A stretch of DNA of 64,000 nucleotides from positions 1,499 through 65,498 of the forward strand of contig JAZLFH010000059.1 of NCBI GenBank assembly GCA_045615705.1, in the 5' to 3' direction. The stretch's first letter is position 1. The number at the start of each line of letters is the position of its first letter. Positions 26,868-48,999 of the stretch are shown in pieces. Source of the DNA: Clostridia bacterium (GTDB lineage: Bacteria > Bacillota > Clostridia > UMGS1883). Position numbers and translations under genes: made by a program. Below the pieces are notes generated by a model. That model saw only the letters and a program-made list of their open reading frames with translations, was not told the origin of the DNA and did no database searches.

Positions 26868-26958
26868 GGAGAGATGGCTGAGTTGGTCTAAGGCGCACGA
26901 CTGGAAATCGTGTAACGGTTAACCCCGTTCAAGGGTTCGAATCCCTTTCTCTCCGCCA
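26868..26958 (+). tRNA. tRNA-Ser (anticodon GGA), CCA encoded
   Basis: GGAGAGA acceptor stem, anticodon stem CACGA/UCGUG with loop CUGGAAA, a long variable arm (AACGG/CCGUU), T-arm GGTTCGAATCC, and a 3' end of UCUCUCC-G-CCA. A TTGTAA-17-TATAAT promoter lies upstream. Confidence 0.85.
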
Positions 26959-27046: not shown

Positions 27047-27414
27047 GGAAGTAAAAAGTAATATGGAAGAAGGAAAAAGTAAGGTAAAAAATCGCAGGCG
27101 ATTTTGTTTTGAATATATGATTTTTCACCAAATTTCAGCATCAATTTCGTATCTGCTCCACCTGTTTTCAAACATTGCATCTAGCACATCATCAATAAAT
27201 CATCAATTTTTAATTTTGATTTCCGTTTGTGAGTAATTGCTTTTGCACTTTTTCACTTCCTTTGTCGATAGTATTTTTTGTAACACACAATACTCCAAAC
27301 CGTTTCATAAATTAAGTGAAAAAATGAATAAAAGCAAAAGGCGATAGATTTTACTCTACCGCCTTTTTTGTTATGTATGGTATGTTTTTCTTTTTACTTA
27401 CGGTGTTGTGATTT

Positions 27415-30400
27415 TTAATCTTCTCCTTTTGCTTTGCAAAGAGGAGTTATATCGGAAAGCGATGACCACCAAAAAGCTTTTACATATCCGCTTTGGGTAA
27501 ATTTGCCTGTCAGGTCATCTGTTTTCGTCAGGTCAAAAGTTTTCACATCAAGTAATTGATTCAAATTTTCATTATCATAAAGTGCAACAATCACAATGCC
27601 CTTGTTTGTATTCTCGCCGTTTGGTGTTACGGTGAAGGTATTCCATGTGGTGTCAAGGGCAAGGCTATCTTTTTCGACGATTTTCACATACGGCATTGTG
27701 CTGTCAAAACTGACACGGTTTTCGTTTTTGTCGTAAACCGCCATATTTTCGCCGATTGTGATTACATCGGCGCCGATGGCTGTTTCGGACACTGAACCCG
27801 TTGCGGTAACTTTGCCGCCGTAAATCGCAACGCCGGTCAAGTCGCCGTTAGTAGTGTTGCCGTGACCGATTCCTTGTGCGGAGAGCAGTCCGGTTGCCGT
27901 GACATCGCCGCCGTAGACTGTCACGCTTCCACCATTGCCGCCGAACATTCCCGTGCCGATGCCTGCACCGTTCGAACTGCTGTTTGCGACTATCTCGCCG
28001 CCGTGAATCGTGATATTGCCGCAGCTTGCGCTCATACCTCCGCCGATGCCGGCAGAGTATGTACCGCCGTTTGCAATAAGCTTACCGGTGCCGCCCTTTT
28101 GCGCATGGACCGTCAGGCTGTTTTCGCCTTCGACCTTGATGCCGCCGACCGTCAGCTCACAGCCGTCCATCAAAATAAGGCTGACATCGCCCGTCACCGT
28201 GACGCTGCTTAAATTTACCGTACCGTCTGCGATGTAAAATCCGCCATTCCATGCGGTTTCATCCGAAAGAACGGTCGCACCTGCGGGAATTTCCAAAAGC
28301 TGCTCTGTGACCTTTTGATTTTGCTCGTCCAGGCTCCGGGCGATATAACAACAGCTCGGATCTTTCGCACCGCAAACGGAGCAGTAGCCATTTACATAAG
28401 TACAGCTTTCGGTTTTGGTCGGTTCGTAACATTCGCCTCCTTGATTGGTATAACAGGTATCACAGAGAAAAGTATGAGTTCCGTTTGTGCCGGCGTCGAT
28501 GATCTTGCCGTACGAATGTATATGTTGTGTCCATTTTGCATAAAGCGTAATATCCTCTGCACAGTTCGCACTGACAGAGGTGACCGGACTGCCCGAACAG
28601 TCAGATTTCTTGAACCAGCCGAGAAAAATATAGTCTGCTTTGACTGCTCTCTTCAACGCTGTCACAGAACCGTAGGTATGTGTTGTCGGATAACCGATTT
28701 CATGTTCACCCGTGAAATCGCATCCGTCTTCATCCTCATCCTCATCCTCATCTTCATCTTCATCCTCGGCTTTGTCCTTGGCTTTATCCTTATAAATTAT
28801 GTTGTAAGCAGCGTTCTTCCAATGTGCGTACAGCGTAAAATCACTCTTCCTGTCGCAGTTTCTTACGCTTTCTCCGCTTGCGTTGTAGTAAGCATTTCCA
28901 AACTTATCATAATAACCCTCGAATGTATAACCGGTCTTTGTCGGAACAGTTATTTCGGGCATCGCATAAGTATAGCGTGCCTCGGCGGCTTCGCTTCCGT
29001 CTCCGCCTCCCTGCATATCAAAGAAGGTAACCGTCACGCTGATATTCGGAGCGTCTGCAAGCTCCAAATAGCCTCCATCGGCGGTTTCGTGCCTTATGTA
29101 TTTACCTTCTGCATCAGAGAAGAAATAATTCGCATCTGCTCCGTTTGTTGTAAATCTGCCGTTGCCGGCTTTTGAAATGCCGATTTGAGCGCCCTGCTTA
29201 AATCCATCGGGGCTATTGCAAACGGTTATGCATTTTGAATCCTGCAAATAGAGATTGTTGTCAGAAGTTCCGTCTTTTGACAAGTTACCGTAAATTTTAG
29301 CTGTTCCGCCGACTGTAAGTTCTCCTCCGTCAGCAACATAAACTCCGCCGCCAAGGTCTGCCGAATTTCCCGTAACAGTGCCGCCTGTCATCGTCAGCTT
29401 GCCTTTGACCAGCACGCCGCCGCCATATAGCTTAGAATCACCTGTGCCTAAGGTCTGACCGGTGCCGCCCGTGATTGTTCCGCACGACGACTGACTGCTG
29501 TCCGTAATTGTCAGATTTGTGCCCTCTTTAACCACGATTGCGCTTCCTTTTGCCTGAGAGAAGTCCATACTGTGTCCGTTGAGGTCAAGAATTACTTTTG
29601 TATGATCTTCCGATGTGTCTACACAGAACGGCTCATCATGGCTGCCGGCTTTGATATCATTCAACAGTTTAATTGTTACAATATACGGAGTACTGTCCAC
29701 CACGCTGACCTCAAGGTCACCGTCGAGCGCCTCACGTGTACACAGTCTGTCCCATGGGCTTGCCGCAATATAGTCAAATAATTTATGCGTGTGATAATAT
29801 GCAACCTCGGTTGCATCATTATGTTTCCATATATTTTCACGGTTTTCCTCAGCGTCTTCACCAATATATGAAGGCCAGTCCGGGTTTTCTCCTATATAGC
29901 TCTCAAGATTTATATTCTTAAGTGTTGATACCGGATTTGAGCCGGCTGCATAGGACTCCACCGGAATTGCGTCCGCAAGCAGCTGCGCTTTGAGAGCAAA
30001 CGCCGCAAACGCCTCACTGCTTGAAATAAACGGCTCTTCTTCACATGCCATACGCTCATCAATAAACGGTGTGAATCTTGTATTTGCCGGACTGATGTCT
30101 CCGGGGTCATAGTTTTCGTTTATGCCCCAGCCGCCTTCGTAATTCATCTGTAATGTGGCATCAAGACCAAGGATATTATACATGACATTATTGATTACTT
30201 TTATATAATCCGTTCCTTTGATTTTTTCGGTAAATGCCCAGTAACCATCATATTTCAATAATTCATGGCCTTCTTTATATTCACTTTTTCGGGTGTACAA
30301 TTTGTTGAAAAATATATCTCTTATTTCCTCTTCACTCGCTTCACGGTCCACATCGTCCGGACAATTTGCAAGGAATTCATCGCTTGGTGAATACAAATTG

Positions 30401-31731
30401 ACAACATTCTTTTTTACATCCTCAAAGCGACCCTTCCAGGTCAAGGTGCTGCGAAAATCCGATTGCCCGAAATTATCATACCAATGCGAAGCCCGCTTTT
30501 GAGCCGGGATATTATTTTCCCAGTAATCATCAACCATTCCGTCATCAACGGCATTTTTGTCGAATGCCTCCGCGGCAATTGATGCATTGAGCATAAAATA
30601 CTTTTCATATTCAAGTCCGAAGTCTTGTATTGCAGAACAAATCAGCATATTGCCGAGTGAATGACCGACCAGATATTTTCTGCCCGGAAGCCGTTCACAT
30701 AAATTTTTAAAATCCTGTGCCGCGGCAAAAGCATTTTCAACATTTGCGTAATAATTCAATGTGAGATTAATAGTACCAAGGAACTTTATCATTGATTCAT
30801 CGCTGTCCCATTCTACTGCCGTAAACATCGAATCCGAGCCGGACTGCCAAAGCCTCTTGTAAAATTCTGACGCTTCTCCTCTCGCTTCATCATGCGTTAC
30901 ATTGTATCCGTGGACAAAGACGAACTGCCTGCCGTCCGAATCCGCATCCTTTCTCGCCGTCGGCTCGTCAGGTACGGATGAATCACCTTGACGAAGATTG
31001 ATTGTGCGGTACATATCCTCAACCTTCGCTACCTTGATAGGCAAATTTAAACTTACCGGATCACGGTCGTCTTTATAACCCGTAAGAACAATATTCCCTT
31101 CACCGAGACCGCTGCCTTCGATCAGTAAAACACCTCTGCCTTCTTGCAAAAAACCATCCGGCAGTTGTGGTTCATCACGGAGAGAAGTGACAGAAGCTTC
31201 ATATACCGGAGTTTCACCATCGAACTCTTTTACATCTATTTTTGTATGAAAATCGCCGGCTTTATCTGCGTTTAGTTTTGTAAACACAACATTTACATTT
31301 GCATCACCTGTGGATTTAAGTTCCCATGTATAATTTTCCCATTCGGGAACCCCGGTCACATCAACCAAAACAGGGAAAAAATCGAGCAGGTCGCAGCGCC
31401 CGTTTACTTTATCGTCATCATAATCCATTTTGTTTCTTTCGTCTGCCGGAGTATCATGTCCGGCAGTATCATGTCCGGCAGTATTTGTATCTCCGGCTGT
31501 TTCGCCGTCACTTGTTCCTTCGGCATCATCGTCATCATTCAGCCAAATGGTAAATACGCCGGTTCCGGATATGGATTTATCATAGTCATATTCGTCAATC
31601 TTGCCATCCCTGTTTAAATCGGGAACCAGTTTCGGCCCCCGTCCGGCCGCAAAGACAGGGATAGTCCCAAGCGGAAGCATTGAGACGATCACAAAAACCG
31701 CAAGTAATAAACTGATAATCTTCTTTTTCAT
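27415..31731 (-). CDS. giant secreted modular surface protein (EF-hand/dockerin-like Ca motif, alpha/beta-hydrolase GHSLG domain, Gly-rich parallel beta-helix repeats, Listeria-Bacteroides (Flg_new) repeats, acidic (D/E)n linker, Cys-rich modules, conserved C-terminal module)
   Basis: The likely start is MKKKIISLLLAVFVIVSMLPLG at 31731, with GGAGGT 9 nt upstream, followed by a signal peptide. It contains DLNRDGKIDEYD, FVFVHGYN...LVGHSLGNMLI, the repeat GGxVTAxG..GAGIGGG, and GYTFEGYYDKFGN. The last 70 aa are near-identical to the paralogue at 32100..36008. Confidence 0.8.
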   Translation of the reverse strand: MKKKIISLLLAVFVIVSMLPLGTIPVFAAGRGPKLVPDLNRDGKIDEYDYDKSISGTGVFTIWLNDDDDAEGTSDGETAGDTNTAGHDTAGHDTPADERNKMDYDDDKVNGRCDLLDFFPVLVDVTGVPEWENYTWELKSTGDANVNVVFTKLNADKAGDFHTKIDVKEFDGETPVYEASVTSLRDEPQLPDGFLQEGRGVLLIEGSGLGEGNIVLTGYKDDRDPVSLNLPIKVAKVEDMYRTINLRQGDSSVPDEPTARKDADSDGRQFVFVHGYNVTHDEARGEASEFYKRLWQSGSDSMFTAVEWDSDESMIKFLGTINLTLNYYANVENAFAAAQDFKNLCERLPGRKYLVGHSLGNMLICSAIQDFGLEYEKYFMLNASIAAEAFDKNAVDDGMVDDYWENNIPAQKRASHWYDNFGQSDFRSTLTWKGRFEDVKKNVVNLYSPSDEFLANCPDDVDREASEEEIRDIFFNKLYTRKSEYKEGHELLKYDGYWAFTEKIKGTDYIKVINNVMYNILGLDATLQMNYEGGWGINENYDPGDISPANTRFTPFIDERMACEEEPFISSSEAFAAFALKAQLLADAIPVESYAAGSNPVSTLKNINLESYIGENPDWPSYIGEDAEENRENIWKHNDATEVAYYHTHKLFDYIAASPWDRLCTREALDGDLEVSVVDSTPYIVTIKLLNDIKAGSHDEPFCVDTSEDHTKVILDLNGHSMDFSQAKGSAIVVKEGTNLTITDSSQSSCGTITGGTGQTLGTGDSKLYGGGVLVKGKLTMTGGTVTGNSADLGGGVYVADGGELTVGGTAKIYGNLSKDGTSDNNLYLQDSKCITVCNSPDGFKQGAQIGISKAGNGRFTTNGADANYFFSDAEGKYIRHETADGGYLELADAPNISVTVTFFDMQGGGDGSEAAEARYTYAMPEITVPTKTGYTFEGYYDKFGNAYYNASGESVRNCDRKSDFTLYAHWKNAAYNIIYKDKAKDKAEDEDEDEDEDEDEDGCDFTGEHEIGYPTTHTYGSVTALKRAVKADYIFLGWFKKSDCSGSPVTSVSANCAEDITLYAKWTQHIHSYGKIIDAGTNGTHTFLCDTCYTNQGGECYEPTKTESCTYVNGYCSVCGAKDPSCCYIARSLDEQNQKVTEQLLEIPAGATVLSDETAWNGGFYIADGTVNLSSVTVTGDVSLILMDGCELTVGGIKVEGENSLTVHAQKGGTGKLIANGGTYSAGIGGGMSASCGNITIHGGEIVANSSSNGAGIGTGMFGGNGGSVTVYGGDVTATGLLSAQGIGHGNTTNGDLTGVAIYGGKVTATGSVSETAIGADVITIGENMAVYDKNENRVSFDSTMPYVKIVEKDSLALDTTWNTFTVTPNGENTNKGIVIVALYDNENLNQLLDVKTFDLTKTDDLTGKFTQSGYVKAFWWSSLSDITPLCKAKGED

Positions 31732-32009
31732 ACTCTTGTACCTCCTGAAATTGCTTTTCATATTCTACTTTACACTATCAATTGCTTCTATTATTGAAAT
31801 TTTTATAAAAATTTAACTGTGTTTTTCTTGTGTATGTAATAAAATGACACAACAAAACCAATTATACATTTTAATTATAGCACTTTTGATTGTGACTTTC
31901 AAGATGCCAAAGCCATTTTCTCTCTTTGCAAGTTTTCCACAAAATTAACAAAATGCTTTGAATTTTATCTTACTAAACTCTCTTATGCAAACTTGTGTCA
32001 AATAAAGAC

Positions 32010-32052
32010 AAAAAAGATAATGGATACTTTTGAGTATTCATTATCTTTTTTT
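32010..32052. terminator. bidirectional intrinsic terminator between the two giant genes
   Basis: aaaaagataatggatacttttgagtattcattatcttttttt. Confidence 0.5.
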
Positions 32053-32099
32053 ATAATATTTAATTTATATTGTGCCTGAATTTTAATCTGCTGTGATTT

Positions 32100-35000
32100 T
32101 TAATCTTCTCCTTTTGCTTTGCAAAGAGGAGTTATATCGGAAAGCGATGACCACCAAAAAGCTTTAACATATCCGCTTTGGGTAAATTTACCTTCCGGCT
32201 TATCTGTTTTCGTAAGGTCAAAAGTTTTCACATCAAGAAGTCTTGTCATATATTCGCTGTCATAAAGTGCAACAATGACAACACCCTTGTTTGTATCCTC
32301 GCCGTTTGGCGTTACCTTGAAGTCATTGCCCGAAATGTCAAGGGTAAGGGAATCCGGCACAAATGTTTTTGTTATCTTTGCAAACCGGTAATCGCTTACG
32401 CTTTTGCCGCTTGGAAGCGGAATAAACTCGTCGGTTTCATTCGCCCTGACCTGAACCGTGCCGTCAATCACGCCGCCCTCGTTAAGTATAACACTTGCAC
32501 CGGTTGCGCCGTCAGAACGGTAGCCTCCTTCATTATCTTTTCCTCCGGCACCGCCGTTGCCGCCGGTCGCATTGACCGAACCTTCATTTATTACAAGGCT
32601 TAAGCATTTTATTCCGGAGCCGCCGTCGCCTCCGGAATGAGCTGTTCCCCAAGAGGCGCCGGCACTAAAACCTTTGCCGCCGACACCGCCGACAGCTGTG
32701 ACGGTCGCATTGTTCACGGTAAGGATTGAAACATCAATTGCGTTGCCGCCTTTAAGTGATTTGCCGTAGCCGCCATTACCGCCTTTTACCGATACCGAAA
32801 CGCCGATGATTGTAAGAGCGGAAACGGTTATCGCATTACCGCCTTCAACCTTCTCCGGCCCGTTCGGACCGTAACAATTCAGCTGACCTGCCTTGCTGCC
32901 TGTACTTTGCGAATGTAGATACAAATGTGCGTCCTCGCCGGAAATAGTGTCTTTTATAAAAATGGGATTTTCATTTGTCTGAATCATAAGTGTGCTTTCG
33001 TCCGTCAAAATCAAATGCACATCACCCGAAACCGACACATTACCCGTTATTCCTACGCCATCCTTTACAACATACCATTTGCCGGCTTCCCATTCGGTCG
33101 GCTTGTGGTTTTCGTCAATCACTTCATAATCTAAACAGACCGATTGTTTTAGTTCCTTGCTTACTTCATCATAGTATAGGTACGGCACGACGGAACTTTC
33201 CGCTACGAGTCGGTAATAGGTGTCGGTGAGGATTTGTGCCCAATATAATCCCCCAACTTGTCTGACAACTTCCTCGTTTGCCCGGTTGTAAACTTTCACA
33301 GTATCTCTTCCGTTATAGTAAATTTCAATACCATTCGGGTCGCTGACCGAAAAAGCCTTTTCCCCGCCCTGCACGGTTACATTGGCGGGGCGAAGGATTC
33401 CGGTGCTGTTACTGAACTTCGACGTTTTTGTCTGAATGCCATATTTACTTCCCGTGACGGAAAGATTACCGCCGGTAACTTCAAGGTGATTTGCCAAAAT
33501 TCCTACTTCACCTTCCGTCGTTACAGTCACATTTGCGTTCTCGCTGATTGTAATTGTATGAAATTTAGCGTAAATGCCGTTATACCCTCCTGTTACGGTT
33601 ACGGTGCCGCCTTTGATAGAAAGGTCGCCGTCGTTTATGATAATAACTTCATGAACATTGGCTACATTATTTACGGTCACGGTACCGCCGGAGACATGCA
33701 TTCCATCGTCTACTATAATAGAATATATGGAGAAGCCTGTCGGAACGACACCGCTCACGGTCAAAGCTCCGTTGCTAATCTCCAGGTGACAACATTTAAT
33801 GAAACCTGCTGTTATGTTTCCGCCGAGGATGGAAATGTCCAATCTCCAGCTGTCAAAAGAATCAACATTCAGGCAGCCCTTGGTGCTCCCGTCCGACTGG
33901 GCATAAACCTTAATATGGCCGCCTTCGCTCGTTATATTTCCGTTTACCGTCAGCGTTTTGCCGTCGCACAGGATCAGGCAGACAGTGCCGGAAAGCGAAA
34001 TGTCTCCGTCTATCGTTATGTTCTCGTTTACCACATACCAGCCGGCGTTTTCTTCATCCGCCCCGCCTGTCCATGTTGTGGTGTCCTGCATCACAGGGGT
34101 ATAGCTCTTGCACTCGGCATAGGCATTACCGGACATCCAATATTTCACCGCAGGCAATGTACCATCTGCAATATGGATTGCTTTATATCCCGACAGAGAA
34201 TTGTATAAATCCTTTTCTTCCGTTACGGGAGAGACAGAAAGCTCTGTGCCGCTTAAATCCTTTACGGTAAATTTTTTGTCCGCATTGGCATAAACCTTAA
34301 CCGAATAAGCAATTACGGCATCTTTGGTGCTTTTGCTGTCGGCAATAATATCGCCGCCGTAAATGGAAATTTTGTTTCTGTAAATACCCCTCGAACCGCC
34401 GCCGAGTGCCATACTGCCGTTGCCGTACGCTTTCACGGTGCCGCCGTATACGGTAATACTGCCGCCGTTGCCTTCATAGCCGTTGCCGATGCCGGCACCT
34501 AGGTTGCCGCCGGTAGCAGTCACCGTGCCACCGTATATCGTTATATCGCCGCAGTCGCGTTCATGACCGCCGCCGATACCGGCTCCGTCATTACCGCCGT
34601 AAGCCGTAACAATACCTCCGTTGATGGTAAGTGTGCCGCTGTCTTCCTTGTCATAACTGCCAATACCTGCCGCACTTGAGCCGCCGTATGCAACGATGCT
34701 GCCGGTATCGTTTTTCTGACCGTAAATTGTCAGAGAATCACTTGCACCGAAAGTACCGCCATCAGTCAATTCTATTGCGGCGTGCACATTCCCGGGCGAA
34801 GGGATTTTCAGCTCGCAATCGTCGCAAAGAACAAGATTTACATCGCCGTTCACAGTGATATGTTTGCCCTCCGGCAGCGTAACGCTTTCCGAAAGAACAT
34901 ACCAGCCGCTTTCAAGTTCTCTTGTGTCCGCCGTGATTTTTTGGGCTGTTTCCGGGATATCTTCCTCCGTGGAAACAACCTGCTTTTTGTCGCTGTCCCA

Positions 35001-36008
35001 GCTCCGGGCGATATATTTGCCCAAGTTGTGTGCACCGCATGCGCATACGCCGTCTTCATATGTATGTGCTTCGGGAGTGCCAAATTCCTCACACCCCGTG
35101 CATTTGTATGCGTGCGTGCCGTCGCCGTTGTTCACACAGTCCCCGGTGAAATTGTGGCTGTGCGGAGGATAGATAATGGATACATAGTGGTATCTGTATT
35201 TTCTGTAATCTTCGACTGTAACGGGCTTACTGTCATCAGCTGTGTCACCCGCTCGGATCTCCAGACCGTTCGCCACGGTAAATTCGCCCTCACCTATGTG
35301 ATTGCCTGCGCCGATGCCCGAGTTTCTGGCCGATGTAGCCGTGACGGTACCGCCATACACGGTCACTTTGCTGCCGCTTCCCCAATGACCGCCGCCGATG
35401 CCTGCACCGTATGTGGATGTAGCCACGATGGTGCCGCCGTACACGGTAACTGCACCGGCACTGATGAAGTCATCATTGTAGCCGTCGTCGCCGATGCCTG
35501 CACCGTATTTGGATGCAGCCACGATGGTGCCGCCGAATATGTTCACTGTGCCGGTGTTGGTGTTGTGGTCGCCTGCTCCGATGGCGGCAGAATACTCGTT
35601 AGGATAACTGTCGCAGTGTGCTTCGATTACGCCTATATTCTTTTGCTGACCGTAAATATTCAGCGTATAACCTTCGGCAACCTCTATACCGGCTGCCGCA
35701 GTAAGCGTAAAACCATCAAGCAGAACGATATTGGTTGGGTTGTTGGTTGTGCCTTTTACCACGATCCGGTTCCCGTTTGTAACGGTTTTGCGGACAACAT
35801 ACCAGCCGCCGGAAAGTTCGGTGGTGTCCGCCGTGATTTCTCCGGCGTATGTAGGAATATCCTTTGCCGTGGAAACGACCTGCTTTTTTGTTTCGTCCCA
35901 GCTCCGGGCGATGTATTTACCGCCCGTTTCCGCCGAAACCGTTACCGGCAAAAGCGATACCACCATCGCCAGCACAATTATTATGCTTAGTAATTTTTTT
36001 GTTTTCAT
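32100..36008 (-). CDS. giant secreted Gly-rich beta-helix surface protein, paralogue of 27415..31731
   Basis: Signal peptide MKTKKLLSIIIVLAMVVSLLPVTVSA. The (K/C)YIARSWD...GWYVV...LVL.DG module is repeated (aa 31 and 330). It has AGIGGG/GAGIG beta-helix repeats and a Cys-rich insert. Its C-terminal 70 aa and 3' flank match the first giant gene at the nucleotide level. Confidence 0.8.
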   Translation of the reverse strand: MKTKKLLSIIIVLAMVVSLLPVTVSAETGGKYIARSWDETKKQVVSTAKDIPTYAGEITADTTELSGGWYVVRKTVTNGNRIVVKGTTNNPTNIVLLDGFTLTAAAGIEVAEGYTLNIYGQQKNIGVIEAHCDSYPNEYSAAIGAGDHNTNTGTVNIFGGTIVAASKYGAGIGDDGYNDDFISAGAVTVYGGTIVATSTYGAGIGGGHWGSGSKVTVYGGTVTATSARNSGIGAGNHIGEGEFTVANGLEIRAGDTADDSKPVTVEDYRKYRYHYVSIIYPPHSHNFTGDCVNNGDGTHAYKCTGCEEFGTPEAHTYEDGVCACGAHNLGKYIARSWDSDKKQVVSTEEDIPETAQKITADTRELESGWYVLSESVTLPEGKHITVNGDVNLVLCDDCELKIPSPGNVHAAIELTDGGTFGASDSLTIYGQKNDTGSIVAYGGSSAAGIGSYDKEDSGTLTINGGIVTAYGGNDGAGIGGGHERDCGDITIYGGTVTATGGNLGAGIGNGYEGNGGSITVYGGTVKAYGNGSMALGGGSRGIYRNKISIYGGDIIADSKSTKDAVIAYSVKVYANADKKFTVKDLSGTELSVSPVTEEKDLYNSLSGYKAIHIADGTLPAVKYWMSGNAYAECKSYTPVMQDTTTWTGGADEENAGWYVVNENITIDGDISLSGTVCLILCDGKTLTVNGNITSEGGHIKVYAQSDGSTKGCLNVDSFDSWRLDISILGGNITAGFIKCCHLEISNGALTVSGVVPTGFSIYSIIVDDGMHVSGGTVTVNNVANVHEVIIINDGDLSIKGGTVTVTGGYNGIYAKFHTITISENANVTVTTEGEVGILANHLEVTGGNLSVTGSKYGIQTKTSKFSNSTGILRPANVTVQGGEKAFSVSDPNGIEIYYNGRDTVKVYNRANEEVVRQVGGLYWAQILTDTYYRLVAESSVVPYLYYDEVSKELKQSVCLDYEVIDENHKPTEWEAGKWYVVKDGVGITGNVSVSGDVHLILTDESTLMIQTNENPIFIKDTISGEDAHLYLHSQSTGSKAGQLNCYGPNGPEKVEGGNAITVSALTIIGVSVSVKGGNGGYGKSLKGGNAIDVSILTVNNATVTAVGGVGGKGFSAGASWGTAHSGGDGGSGIKCLSLVINEGSVNATGGNGGAGGKDNEGGYRSDGATGASVILNEGGVIDGTVQVRANETDEFIPLPSGKSVSDYRFAKITKTFVPDSLTLDISGNDFKVTPNGEDTNKGVVIVALYDSEYMTRLLDVKTFDLTKTDKPEGKFTQSGYVKAFWWSSLSDITPLCKAKGED

Positions 36009-36169
36009 AATGAAAACCTCACTTTCCCTAAATTGCTTCTATGTTTTTGAAATTTTTATGCAAATTTAACTGTGTTTTTCTTGTATATATAATCAAATGA
36101 CACAACAAACCTAACTATTCATCTTAATTATAGCACTTTAAAAGAAAATTTTCAAGATGCCAAAGCCGT

Positions 36170-36290
36170 TTTCTCTCTTTTTTACAGGAAAATTTTTTCT
36201 TGTACAAAGTTTTCCTTAAAAGTGGCGAAAGCCTTCTGTTTTATTAAACAAAAGGCTTTGAATTTTATCTTATTATACGAAAAAACTCGA
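36170..36290 (-). promoter_or_regulatory. conserved roughly 110-nt leader/promoter cassette (copy A), shared upstream element of three consecutive minus-strand genes
   Basis: Near-identical copies sit at 37598..37720 (upstream of the decarboxylase gene) and partially at 31900..31985 (upstream of the first giant gene). Each copy contains the hairpin AAAGCCTT...AAGGCTTT, the 8-bp palindrome TTGTACAA, and a -10-like TAAAAT at its edge. Confidence 0.55.
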
Positions 36291-36330
36291 AAATGGCTAC
36301 TGTTTTTATTTTTTTCGCCTTGTGTACATA

Positions 36331-37476
36331 TCAACGATTTAAGTCTTCGATAAACTCGTCAATGATATTTTTCTTCACATGCTGCATCACGACTATATGG
36401 GAAAGTTCCCCGCCGTATTCCGGGAGAAAGCCGTTTGCAAGTGAATATTTCTTCCGTATCCACTCCGGCGGACGCTTGAAAAACACCGTGTTGCTATACG
36501 GCATATGCCATGCGGGATAACCGATTTCGTCAAATTTTTCCTGAAGATATCTCGTGTTTTCGAGCATGGACTCGGCTTCTTTTTCAAAAGCATCATATCC
36601 CATATGATGTAAAATCCAATAAAATTTAAGCGGTGCAACAGCACTTCTTGAACAGCTGATCAGCGGCATATCATTATTGAGATACTCCACCTTTGCTGCC
36701 CTTTGTGCCGCCAAAACATCTTTTCGGCTCAAAAACAAGCCACACGGTTCATCAATGCCGAAAAACTTATGACCGCTGATGGCAATCGAATCGTATCCCT
36801 GCTTTTCCATGCTTACAATATCTTTATATTCCGTAAATGGGAAATAACCGCCGAACAAAGCGGCATCAAGATGCTTATAAACGCCGACCGGTTTTACTTC
36901 TTCCAATACTTTTCCGATTGAGGCTTGGTCATCTGTGGCTCCCATAAATGTGGACCCGATGGCAAAAACGATCAATGCCGGTCTTGTCGGGTCAAGGTTT
37001 TCTCTGAATGAATCCGGATCCATGCGTCCCAGATTATCATAATCAATCATTCGGTTTTCAAGATTCTGGACATCACACAAACGGGATGAAGAATAATGCG
37101 CTTCTTTGGAAATATAGACAATCGGAAGCATTCCGGTTTCTTTTTGAAGTTTCTTTGCACCGAAATAAATTCCGTGCATATTTCCGTCTGTTCCGCTGTT
37201 AGTAACAAAGCCCCATTCCTCGCCTTTCGGGATACCGTAGAGCGGTGCAAAAGTCTGAATGACTTCTCTTTCGATCAAAGTGGCGCTCAACAGGTACTGT
37301 TCATCGTCAAACGGATTTCCTACATTGTTAGTCGCAATATCACACAGCCCGGTTTTGGCGTACCATTCACCAAACCCTGCCATATTAGGATATTGACAAA
37401 CGGGATACCCAATACTGTAATCTACATTTTTATAGAATTCTTTTACAAGATTAATCAGGCGTTCTTCAACTTCCAT
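36331..37476 (-). CDS. PLP-dependent group II amino-acid decarboxylase, histidine-decarboxylase-like (HdcA-type fold)
   Basis: The 381-aa protein has GYPVCQYP, WGFVTNSGTDGNMHG, the PLP-lysine motif SGHKFFGIDEPCG and HxD. These align with Gram-negative PLP histidine decarboxylases. A GGAGG ribosome-binding site is present. Confidence 0.7.
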   Translation of the reverse strand: MEVEERLINLVKEFYKNVDYSIGYPVCQYPNMAGFGEWYAKTGLCDIATNNVGNPFDDEQYLLSATLIEREVIQTFAPLYGIPKGEEWGFVTNSGTDGNMHGIYFGAKKLQKETGMLPIVYISKEAHYSSSRLCDVQNLENRMIDYDNLGRMDPDSFRENLDPTRPALIVFAIGSTFMGATDDQASIGKVLEEVKPVGVYKHLDAALFGGYFPFTEYKDIVSMEKQGYDSIAISGHKFFGIDEPCGLFLSRKDVLAAQRAAKVEYLNNDMPLISCSRSAVAPLKFYWILHHMGYDAFEKEAESMLENTRYLQEKFDEIGYPAWHMPYSNTVFFKRPPEWIRKKYSLANGFLPEYGGELSHIVVMQHVKKNIIDEFIEDLNR

Positions 37477-37597: not shown

Positions 37598-37720
37598 GGT
37601 TTTCACCGTTTTCTCTCTTTTTTACAGGATTTTTTCTTGTACAAAGTTTTTCCGTAAAAGTGGCGAAAGCCTTCTGTTTTATTAAACAAAAGGCTTTAAA
37701 TTTTATCTTACCAAACTTTC
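37598..37720 (-). promoter_or_regulatory. conserved leader/promoter cassette (copy B) upstream of the decarboxylase gene
   Basis: About 95% identical to 36170..36290. Its edge carries TTTACA-18-TAAAAT on the minus strand. Confidence 0.5.
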
Positions 37721-47796: not shown

Positions 47797-48999
47797 TTAC
47801 TGTGCAATAGATGCAACAACGCCGGAACCGACTGTTCTTCCGCCTTCACGGATAGCGAAGCGAAGACCTTCTTCAATAGCGATAGGTGTAATAAGTTCAA
47901 CATTGATTGTAACATTATCGCCGGGCATACACATTTCAACACCCTGAGGAAGTTCGATAACACCTGTAACATCTGTTGTTCTGAAATAGAACTGAGGACG
48001 ATAGTTGTTAAAGAATGGAGTATGACGGCCACCTTCGTCTTTGGTAAGAACATAAACCTCACCCTTAAACTTTGTATGAGGATTGATTGTTCCCGGTTTT
48101 GCAAGAACCTGACCTCTTTCGATTTCAGATCTCTGTACACCACGAAGAAGTGCACCGATGTTATCTCCTGCTTCTGCACTGTCAAGAAGCTTTCTGAACA
48201 TTTCGATACCTGTTACAACAACCTTTCTTCTTTCCTCTGTAAGTCCAACGATTTCAACTTCTTCAGAAAGTGTAAGGCTACCTCTTTCAACTCTACCTGT
48301 TGCAACTGTACCACGACCTGTGATTGTAAATACATCTTCAACCGGCATAAGGAACGGAAGGTCTGACTTACGCTCAGGTGTAGGAATGTATGCATCAACC
48401 TGCTCCATAAGGTCAAGGATTGGCTTATAAACAGGATCGTTGACATCTGTAGATGCAGATTCAAGAACCTGAAGAGCACTACCCTTTACAATCGGAATAT
48501 CATCTCCGGGGAATTCATATTCTGTAAGAAGTTCTCTGATTTCCATTTCAACGAGTTCCAAAAGTTCAGGATCATCAACTTGGTCAGTCTTGTTCATAAA
48601 TACAACAATGTAAGGAACACCAACCTGACGAGCAAGAAGGATATGCTCACGAGTCTGAGGCATAACACCATCAGCAGATGAAACAACCAAGATAGCACCG
48701 TCCATCTGAGCAGCACCTGTGATCATGTTCTTAACATAATCAGCGTGTCCGGGGCAGTCAACATGTGCATAGTGGCGTGTATCTGTCTGATACTCAACAT
48801 GTGCTGTGGAAATCGTGATTCCTCTTGCTTTTTCCTCGGGAGCCTTATCAATCTGGTCATAAGCTGTGAAATCTGCTTGGCCTTTCATACCAAGAACTTT
48901 TGTAATAGCTGCGGTAAGAGATGTCTTACCATGATCAACGTGCCCGATTGTACCAATGTTTACATGGGGCTTACTTCTGTCAAATTTTTCTTTTGCCAT
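47797..48999 (-). CDS. tuf: elongation factor Tu
   Basis: [26 protein letters not shown]... Confidence 0.97.

Follow-up and report, generated by a model that had tools for sequence, protein, structure and literature searches.

Two large neighbouring genes in a 64,000-nt stretch of DNA from an uncultured, gut-type Clostridia bacterium (GenBank assembly GCA_045615705.1, contig JAZLFH010000059.1, positions 1,499 to 65,498; the whole stretch is called the window here) end in almost the same letters, and we were interested whether both are copies of one ancestor or unlike genes that have exchanged their ends. An earlier interpretation of the DNA from its letters and reading frames (the sequence-only reading) had described them as paralogous beta-helix surface proteins with a recent gene conversion at the 3' end. 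The open reading frames (ORFs) were found as it had given them, with 1438 amino acids (aa) for the product of gene A and 1302 aa for that of gene B, in tandem and head to tail on the minus strand (Table 1). As explained below, A and B probably encode separately transcribed, large, secreted and modular proteins, which have a leader and a C-terminal domain (CTD) in common at their ends, which exchanged the tail of this CTD by recombination, and in which the CTD acts as a tether and the solenoids are displayed.

Comparison of A with B by blastn led to one long common stretch (27404-27664 vs 32089-32349; 86% over 261 nt, ungapped) and to a 75-nt match between coil repeats. The 3' homology begins at the first residue of the CTD (27669/32354), and the two CTDs are 81% identical in amino acids and 85% in nucleotides. 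About 210 coding nt and about 15 nt of 3' flank had been claimed to be nearly identical; the DNA is indeed homologous and the coordinates were right, but near-identity is confined to the last 98 nt (87 coding nt, the stop codon and 8 nt of flank), in which the sole mismatch is synonymous. On the 5' side of this tract the identity is patchy (50-97% per segment), as conserved blocks alternate with three patches in which nearly every codon is different. A dot-plot had been proposed as a check, and its blastn equivalent confirmed that the nucleotide identity exceeds what the amino acids need: where both genes encode the same residue (68 codons), 59 codons are identical, compared with 27.5 expected from the codon usage of A and B, and 59 was reached in 0 of 200,000 simulations. 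Of the final 29 codons, all but one agree (28, with 12.4 expected; P about 6e-11), and at most one mismatch in 98 nt was obtained in 0 of 100,000 permutations of the 36 mismatches. Third positions are identical at a fraction of 0.82 between the CTDs of A and B, but of 0.24-0.52 in the other 14 CTD pairs.

The closest homologue of A elsewhere, P0159, allowed a three-way comparison. It was found in three Logan samples (L004-L006), has the architecture of A and shares 80% DNA identity with it over 2.9 kb (31744-28818), but module plus CTD are only 42% identical in protein, and the CTD is 63% identical in DNA. Informative sites in CTD codons 1-55 group A with B 31 times, A with P0159 10 times and B with P0159 17 times, and the corresponding numbers for codons 56-84 are 36, 0 and 0 (Fisher's exact test on the three-way table, p=1.6e-7). 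Over the last 29 codons the identity of A is 0.60 to P0159 and 0.99 to B. The variable patches of A still keep residues as in P0159 (ENLN, LTG), and its tail is that of B. These sequence comparisons give good support to a breakpoint, of recombination or gene conversion, at about 27505/32190. The recent 3'-end recombination that had been proposed is thereby substantiated, with an excess of identical silent sites, a significant breakpoint and a tract inside which A is closer to B than to P0159, incongruent with the relationship of the bodies.

The stop codon gives a further hint on the history of the tract. In A and B, TAA replaces a Leu codon of an ancestral tail (...GKD-LKVTAE and stop), which is kept in other family members and in a CTD relic in L004. 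The 8 identical nt behind the stop were thus once coding, and A and B share the premature stop as a derived character. The relic itself, present in L004-L006, lies about 190 nt upstream of P0159, between the 3' end of a tRNA and P0159, and in L004 (156-285) it shows 75% identity over 131 nt to the 3' end and flank of A (27327-27453), indicating that CTD tails and terminators were rearranged in the sister lineage too. L004 starts with a tRNA fragment that differs from the tRNA-Ser of the window, and no synteny could be drawn from it. Two other homologues, P0160 and P0161, stand in unrelated contexts without CTD and without leader and gave no synteny either.

Outside the ends, the two genes differ. 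Signal peptides and bodies had been said to be different, and indeed the bodies show no DNA similarity and the architectures are not the same. B consists of a Sec-type signal peptide, four beta-solenoid modules, the first two joined by a Cys/His linker, and the CTD. In A, the signal peptide is followed by an N-terminal unit of about 650 aa, a beta-helix-like stretch, two Flg_new repeats, a Cys/His linker, one PF18889-type module and the CTD. Both signal peptides are of the Sec type, and both proteins are predicted to be secreted. The N-terminal unit of A contains a DUF900 (PF05990) core at residues 264-377 (29.5 bits; Pfam cut-off 20.5 bits), with the motif GHSLGN (GXSXG nucleophile motif) kept in the alignment of A homologues, where H357, L359, G360 and N361 are listed as invariant. 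More than 200 homologues fuse this type of N-terminal unit to other C-terminal parts, such as nucleoside hydrolase, amidohydrolase, CBAH, TSP3 repeats and RCC1. The single module of A (residues 1129-1335) was detected with the profile of the B modules (E=3.9e-62), and no direct Pfam match to PF18889 was found in A. As only one module type and the two ends are in common and the rest is different, A and B are not paralogues as wholes. Judged from its sequence, A is a member of a family other than that of B, with DUF900 unit and Flg_new repeats, which appears to have acquired one PF18889-type module. The earlier description as paralogues thus applies to this module type and to both ends but not to the remainder of A, and the mosaic structure that it assumed is supported. 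Two in-frame microsatellites were observed in A, one with a hexanucleotide unit (28730-28767, 6.3 copies) encoding an (ED)n run inside the second Flg_new repeat and one with a 15-nt unit (31446-31484, 2.7 copies) encoding AGHDT repeats close to the N-terminus. The length of either may vary.

At the other end, A and B are alike as well, with 85% identity over 150 nt that include the promoter and most of the leader, a likeness not noted in the sequence-only reading. Each gene has its own promoter-like site and its own hairpin terminator, and A and B are therefore separate transcription units. Translation of A was assigned to the ATG at 31731 with GGAGG 9 nt ahead, the same start as in P0159; a longer reading frame of 1448 aa would begin at 31761. 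The leader comprises about 105-120 nt with a conserved AAATTT-N6-AAATTT motif, and a short piece further upstream is also homologous between A and B. In at least four other organisms, homologous leaders (71-88% DNA identity) stand ahead of CTD genes whose bodies are unrelated. Since the silent sites of the CTD are saturated between these organisms, the leader is under selection. P0028 and P0159 are without most of it, and the leader is thus not universal. RNAalifold on five leaders led to one weak helix with no compensatory pair, and a search of the leader against Rfam gave no match. The leader may act as RNA or, through its AAATTT-N6-AAATTT motif, as an operator. An invertible promoter or phase-variation switch was considered and rejected, as the only inverted repeats present are AT-rich or hairpins.

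We then asked what is carried between these ends. Gly-rich repeats and a parallel beta-helix had been predicted before. The repeats are real and in B belong to PF18889 (Beta_helix_3; 36.6 bits vs the Pfam gathering cut-off of 27 bits, and 31.3 bits for module 1 alone), but their period is 29-32 residues, with DNA periods of 87 and 96 nt, instead of the assumed 20 or so. Each module starts with a small cap with (K/C)YIARSWD and GWYVV motifs, followed by Gly-rich coils (GG.VTA.G..GAGIGGG), and its conserved positions are mostly Gly and hydrophobic framework residues. The three copies reported earlier are reproduced for the literal motif YIARS(W/L)D, at residues 32 and 332 of B and residue 1129 of A, but the jackhmmer profile detects five modules, four in B and one in A. 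AlphaFold2 modelling of residues 28-335 of B with an alignment of 18 module sequences resulted in an all-beta structure with regularly repeating strand pairs (predicted local distance difference test, pLDDT, 85.4; predicted TM-score, pTM, 0.83). The matches of this model in the PDB are weak and none is significant, and all of them are beta-solenoids; at the level of prediction, the beta-solenoid fold of the B modules is thus supported, as the sequence-only reading had expected. No significant hit came from searching the PDB by sequence, whether the query was either protein or the profile of the modules or of the CTD. Cys/His-rich linkers (H.H...NGDGTH...C..C...C.CG) stand ahead of YIARSWD modules at 35022-35153 and 28348-28524 and recur in homologues. 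They resemble small metal-binding knots, with low AlphaFold2 confidence in this part.

The module consensus (Y..R.WD...GWYVV...LIL.DG..LT...GAGIGGG) is found in more than 5,900 homologues, and an unrelated protein of 1870 aa, P0003, has a first module with 72% identity to module 2 of B. PF18889 proteins of gut and rumen anaerobes are, like A and B, large, secreted and modular, and combine the module with Flg_new, LRR_5, dockerin or SLH. In place of dockerin or SLH, A and B have an Ig-like CTD at their ends that is unannotated. No member of PF18889 has apparently been characterized in the literature, and the sole mention found describes it as a 'stalk' domain of fibrillar-adhesin-like proteins, never seen together with a known adhesive domain (PMC8286594). 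In the sense of that paper, A and B possess a domain of the stalk class, but neither a known adhesive domain nor a known anchor was found. They may be variable adhesins, as had been suggested before. The proposed association with the S-layer is not supported, as neither protein contains SLH (PF00395), LPXTG or dockerin; the SLH domain is present in some homologues. In particular, no LPXTG-like sortase signal was found near either C-terminus, both of which read ...PLCKAKGED, and type I dockerin (PF00404) has no match in A or B.

The CTD has no match in Pfam or NCBIfam, and only 42 clusters were obtained when 1.84 billion representative proteins were scanned in full with HMMER. Most full-length members have the domain ending at most 11 residues from the C-terminus, on passengers as varied as Beta_helix_3 (9/22 scanned), LRR_5, Flg_new, DUF285, GLUG and ricin-type lectin. 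From its consensus (L.L...G..FTV...GKD.G.GVV.VALYDSE....LLDVK.FDL.....P.G.F...GYVKAFWWS.L..M.PLC.A), a Gly and a Pro are invariant, and a Val, a Tyr, a Trp and a Cys nearly so. Scans with the CTD alignment detected one spurious locus in a genome-contig collection and one weak locus in metagenome contigs, so that the domain is essentially absent from both contig collections. Foldseek with the CTD of B returned only FN3/Ig-like sandwiches (probability 0.96-0.99, E about 0.04, TM about 0.5). In the closest homologues of B (P0004, P0007 and P0010), the exact place of the CTD at the extreme C-terminus is taken by a type I dockerin, a correspondence that the sequence-only reading had not noted. Because of this equal position and the varied passengers, we infer that the CTD is a tether or assembly module. 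In sample SRR28771584, two CTD genes (P0127 in L009 and P0135 in L015) appear to flank one histidine-biosynthesis operon, and the organism also has P0159. It would then hold at least three CTD genes plus the relic, with CTDs that are not homogenized (63% DNA identity for P0159 vs P0127).

Known systems resemble this arrangement in parts. Cellulosomal proteins with type I dockerin (PF00404) also have a small terminal module on varied passengers, but the dockerin is a pair of EF-hands, whereas the CTD is predicted as an all-beta sandwich, and no cohesin-like partner was identified for it. The C-terminal sorting domain of the type IX secretion system (T9SS; TIGR04183) in Bacteroidota is likewise a beta-sandwich of about 80 residues at the extreme C-terminus of unrelated passengers. 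The host of A and B belongs to the Clostridia, as judged from EF-Tu, and the CTD is rare (42 clusters) with few copies per organism, compared to tens for the T9SS domain; moreover, NCBIfam and Pfam searches of A and B gave no match to the T9SS cargo domain (TIGR04183/Por_Secre_tail). Concerted evolution and gene conversion among tandem surface-protein genes are a general phenomenon. A and B are similar to such cases in being direct repeats 4.7 kb apart with a sharp identity boundary and in being closer to each other in the tract than A is to P0159. They differ from them in that they are alike only at their ends, with non-homologous bodies and with no archive of silent cassettes, programmed mechanism or invertible promoter.

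How, then, did the genes obtain their common 3' end? As the comparisons above show, the CTD-coding DNA of A and B has a recent common ancestry, and the latest exchange was that of the last 98 nt, which took place between the direct repeats through homologous recombination or gene conversion. The most parsimonious direction is that the tail of the B type, from the upstream gene, overwrote the original tail of A, and the 5' two-thirds of the CTD would be explained by exchange that was earlier or patchier. A simple recent tandem duplication, with the common ends as its remainder, a middle that diverged or was replaced and no later conversion, is unlikely in comparison. It agrees with two adjacent direct repeats whose ends (promoter/leader and CTD) are both about 85% identical, but not with bodies that lack DNA similarity and differ in architecture, nor with the jump from mixed to 99% identity at codon 56, which uniform divergence would not give. 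In addition, the body of A has 80% DNA identity to P0159, in which the CTD tail is a different one, so that the tail of A changed after the split; an A-type gene with a tail not of the B type was seen once, in P0159. Even less can be said for purifying selection at the nucleotide level on a functional RNA or DNA element in the 3' 98 nt (a signal in the 3' untranslated region, an antisense RNA or a component of the terminator). The identity does extend 8 nt past the stop, but this is explained as former coding sequence, the tract has no Rfam match at E<=1 and an ordinary folding energy (z = -0.84), and other CTD genes do not keep these silent sites; the RNA element was therefore rejected. An assembly artefact, in which two strains or loci were collapsed or joined at a short repeat, has to be considered for a 65.7-kb contig of an NCBI metagenome-type assembly, as misjoins are known to arise at repeats of about 100 nt. 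It is nevertheless very improbable, since both copies lie in intact long ORFs with graded similarity upstream and with their own terminator and promoter, and a comparable CTD relic occurs beside the A homologue in three independent samples (L004, L005 and L006).

Concerning the function, the CTD would act as tether or assembly module and hold the solenoid modules as binding or spacer elements at the cell surface, and the conserved ends would supply homology for reshuffling bodies and tails. A and B would then be secreted, tethered binding proteins, as position and predicted fold suggest. It is improbable, though conceivable, that the modules are enzymes instead (beta-helices similar to polysaccharide lyases or glycosidases) and that A and B are secreted carbohydrate-active enzymes. 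The best solved relative in two independent methods is Cthe_2159 (PDB 4peu; Foldseek E=0.17, profile E=0.24), a polysaccharide-lyase-like, carbohydrate-binding protein; A has an alpha/beta-hydrolase core with GHSLGN, and a GH30 gene is nearby. However, the matches to Cthe_2159 are not significant (TM 0.21-0.25), no catalytic family was matched for the modules in Pfam or NCBIfam, and the conserved positions of the modules are mostly those of a Gly/hydrophobic framework. The beta-solenoid binding regions of the pectate-lyase superfamily, with Cthe_2159, are discussed in PMC9210967; this protein is an all-beta solenoid like the B model and came top in the fold and profile searches, but no PF14262 match was found. 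A more far-reaching idea would be that leader and CTD form an undescribed frame for exported proteins of a sparsely sampled Clostridia lineage, in which the leader is a dedicated cis-regulatory element, the CTD is a new tethering or sorting module with the function of a dockerin and homologous recombination at the ends swaps passenger bodies and tails between loci. This is rather doubtful at present and, if true, would mean a cassette-exchange route to surface diversity.

Several observations weigh against separately transcribed, tethered proteins with a recombined tail, and they should be considered together. The 3' flank of A resembles the relic upstream of P0159 and that of B does not, which calls for more than one event or for another order. 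The orthology of P0159 and A is drawn from 80% DNA identity and identical architecture. The synonymous contrast between the two parts of the CTD is modest by itself (8/39 vs 1/29 same-residue codons), and the breakpoint is mainly based on the three-way comparison. The sequence of A and B is that of a metagenome-assembled contig. For the fold of the CTD, a generic sandwich, no specific match reached significance, and for the function of both the PF18889 proteins and the CTD it is position and fold only that can be put forward. With these points in mind, the locus is an example of modular surface-protein evolution of a familiar kind, with no new mechanism. PF18889 is a very large family that abounds in gut and rumen anaerobes, and the locus provides it with a statistically supported case of end-restricted recombination between non-paralogous neighbours. 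The CTD at the dockerin position is a concrete candidate for a new attachment module, and the leader, conserved across organisms along with the CTD, offers a handle on the regulation of CTD genes. For the surface-protein biology of uncultured Clostridia the gain is incremental, and current ideas stand.

Table 1. Positions of genes A and B and of associated features. Numbers refer to the window unless a Logan locus (L) or protein residues are given.
Feature	Position	Strand	Remarks
Gene A	27415..31731	minus	ORF, 1438 aa; downstream of B
Gene B	32100..36008	minus	ORF, 1302 aa; upstream of A
CTD of A	27418..27669	minus	84 residues; Ig/FN3-like beta-sandwich (predicted)
CTD of B	32103..32354	minus	84 residues; AlphaFold2 pLDDT 92.6, seven strands
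Homogenized tract, A copy	27407..27504	minus	97/98 identical to B copy; last 29 codons, TAA stop, 8 nt flank
Homogenized tract, B copy	32092..32189	minus	97/98 identical to A copy
CTD relic	L004 about 150-285 (also L005, L006)		last 19 CTD codons (DDITPLCDAVGKDLKVTAE and stop) and terminator
Terminator-like hairpin after A	27336..27367	minus	13-bp stem, then T-run
Terminator-like hairpin after B	32010..32051	minus	19-bp stem; parts the two transcription units
Promoter and 5' leader, A copy	31780..31927	minus	85% over 150 nt vs B copy
Promoter and 5' leader, B copy	36031..36180	minus	85% over 150 nt vs A copy
Promoter-like site of A	31902-31874	minus	-35 TTGAAA / 17 nt / TGCTATAAT; 11/12 positions
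Promoter-like site of B	36155-36127	minus	TTGAAA / 17 nt / TGnTATAAT pattern; 11/12 positions
Leader of P0129	L011 287-471		79% over 188 nt
Leader of P0136 (LRR_5 protein)	L014 756-937		78% over 183 nt
Leader of P0127	L009 3129-3383		71% over 273 nt
Leader of P0135	L015 2943-2997		3' half only, 87.5% over 56 nt
N-terminal unit of A	29692-31644 (A residues 30 to about 680)	minus	acidic DxNxDG/WLNDDDD region and DUF900 core
Modules 1-4 of B	residues 29-285, 330-584, 631 to about 890, 945 to about 1180		jackhmmer module map
Upstream element next to B	36166..36272	minus	hairpin AAAGCCTTCTGTTT/AAACAAAAGGCTTT; 94% (gapped) over 108 nt to second copy
Upstream element, second copy	37606..37710	minus	upstream of decarboxylase gene 36331..37476
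Upstream element, partial third copy	31947-31992		
tRNA-Ser(GGA)	26868-26958		adjoins the block of A, B and decarboxylase gene
EF-Tu gene	47797-48999		

The neighbours of A and B are housekeeping genes (mcsB/clpC, galK, DUF4364, a pyridoxal phosphate (PLP)-dependent decarboxylase, GH30 and aroE/K), with rpoB, rpoC, fusA and tuf further along the window. EF-Tu is 88-90% identical to that of metagenome-assembled genomes of uncultured Clostridia and Oscillospiraceae. In a collection of 15 billion proteins clustered at 90% identity, EF-Tu and RpsL each stand alone, and the singleton EF-Tu indicates that the host belongs to a sparsely sampled lineage of the Clostridia. The product of B is present in this collection and that of A is missing from it; A may be annotated differently or as a pseudogene.

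The DNA of A and B also differs in composition from its surroundings. Overall GC amounts to 46-52% in the A/B region vs 36-39% in the flanks. At third codon positions the GC values are 0.46 for A, 0.52 for B and 0.5-0.63 for module-coding DNA, compared with 0.29-0.36 in housekeeping genes. Together with the likeness of B module 2 to P0003, the raised GC points to acquisition and shuffling of module DNA. In the decarboxylase gene third-position GC is also raised (0.43), and the block 27415-37476, which adjoins tRNA-Ser(GGA), could be an island of acquired DNA; the neighbouring ORFs that were scanned showed no integrase domain. The decarboxylase gene is flanked by a 108-nt direct repeat with a 14-bp hairpin, the upstream element of Table 1, which suggests for this gene an insertion into the region upstream of B or a duplication together with it.

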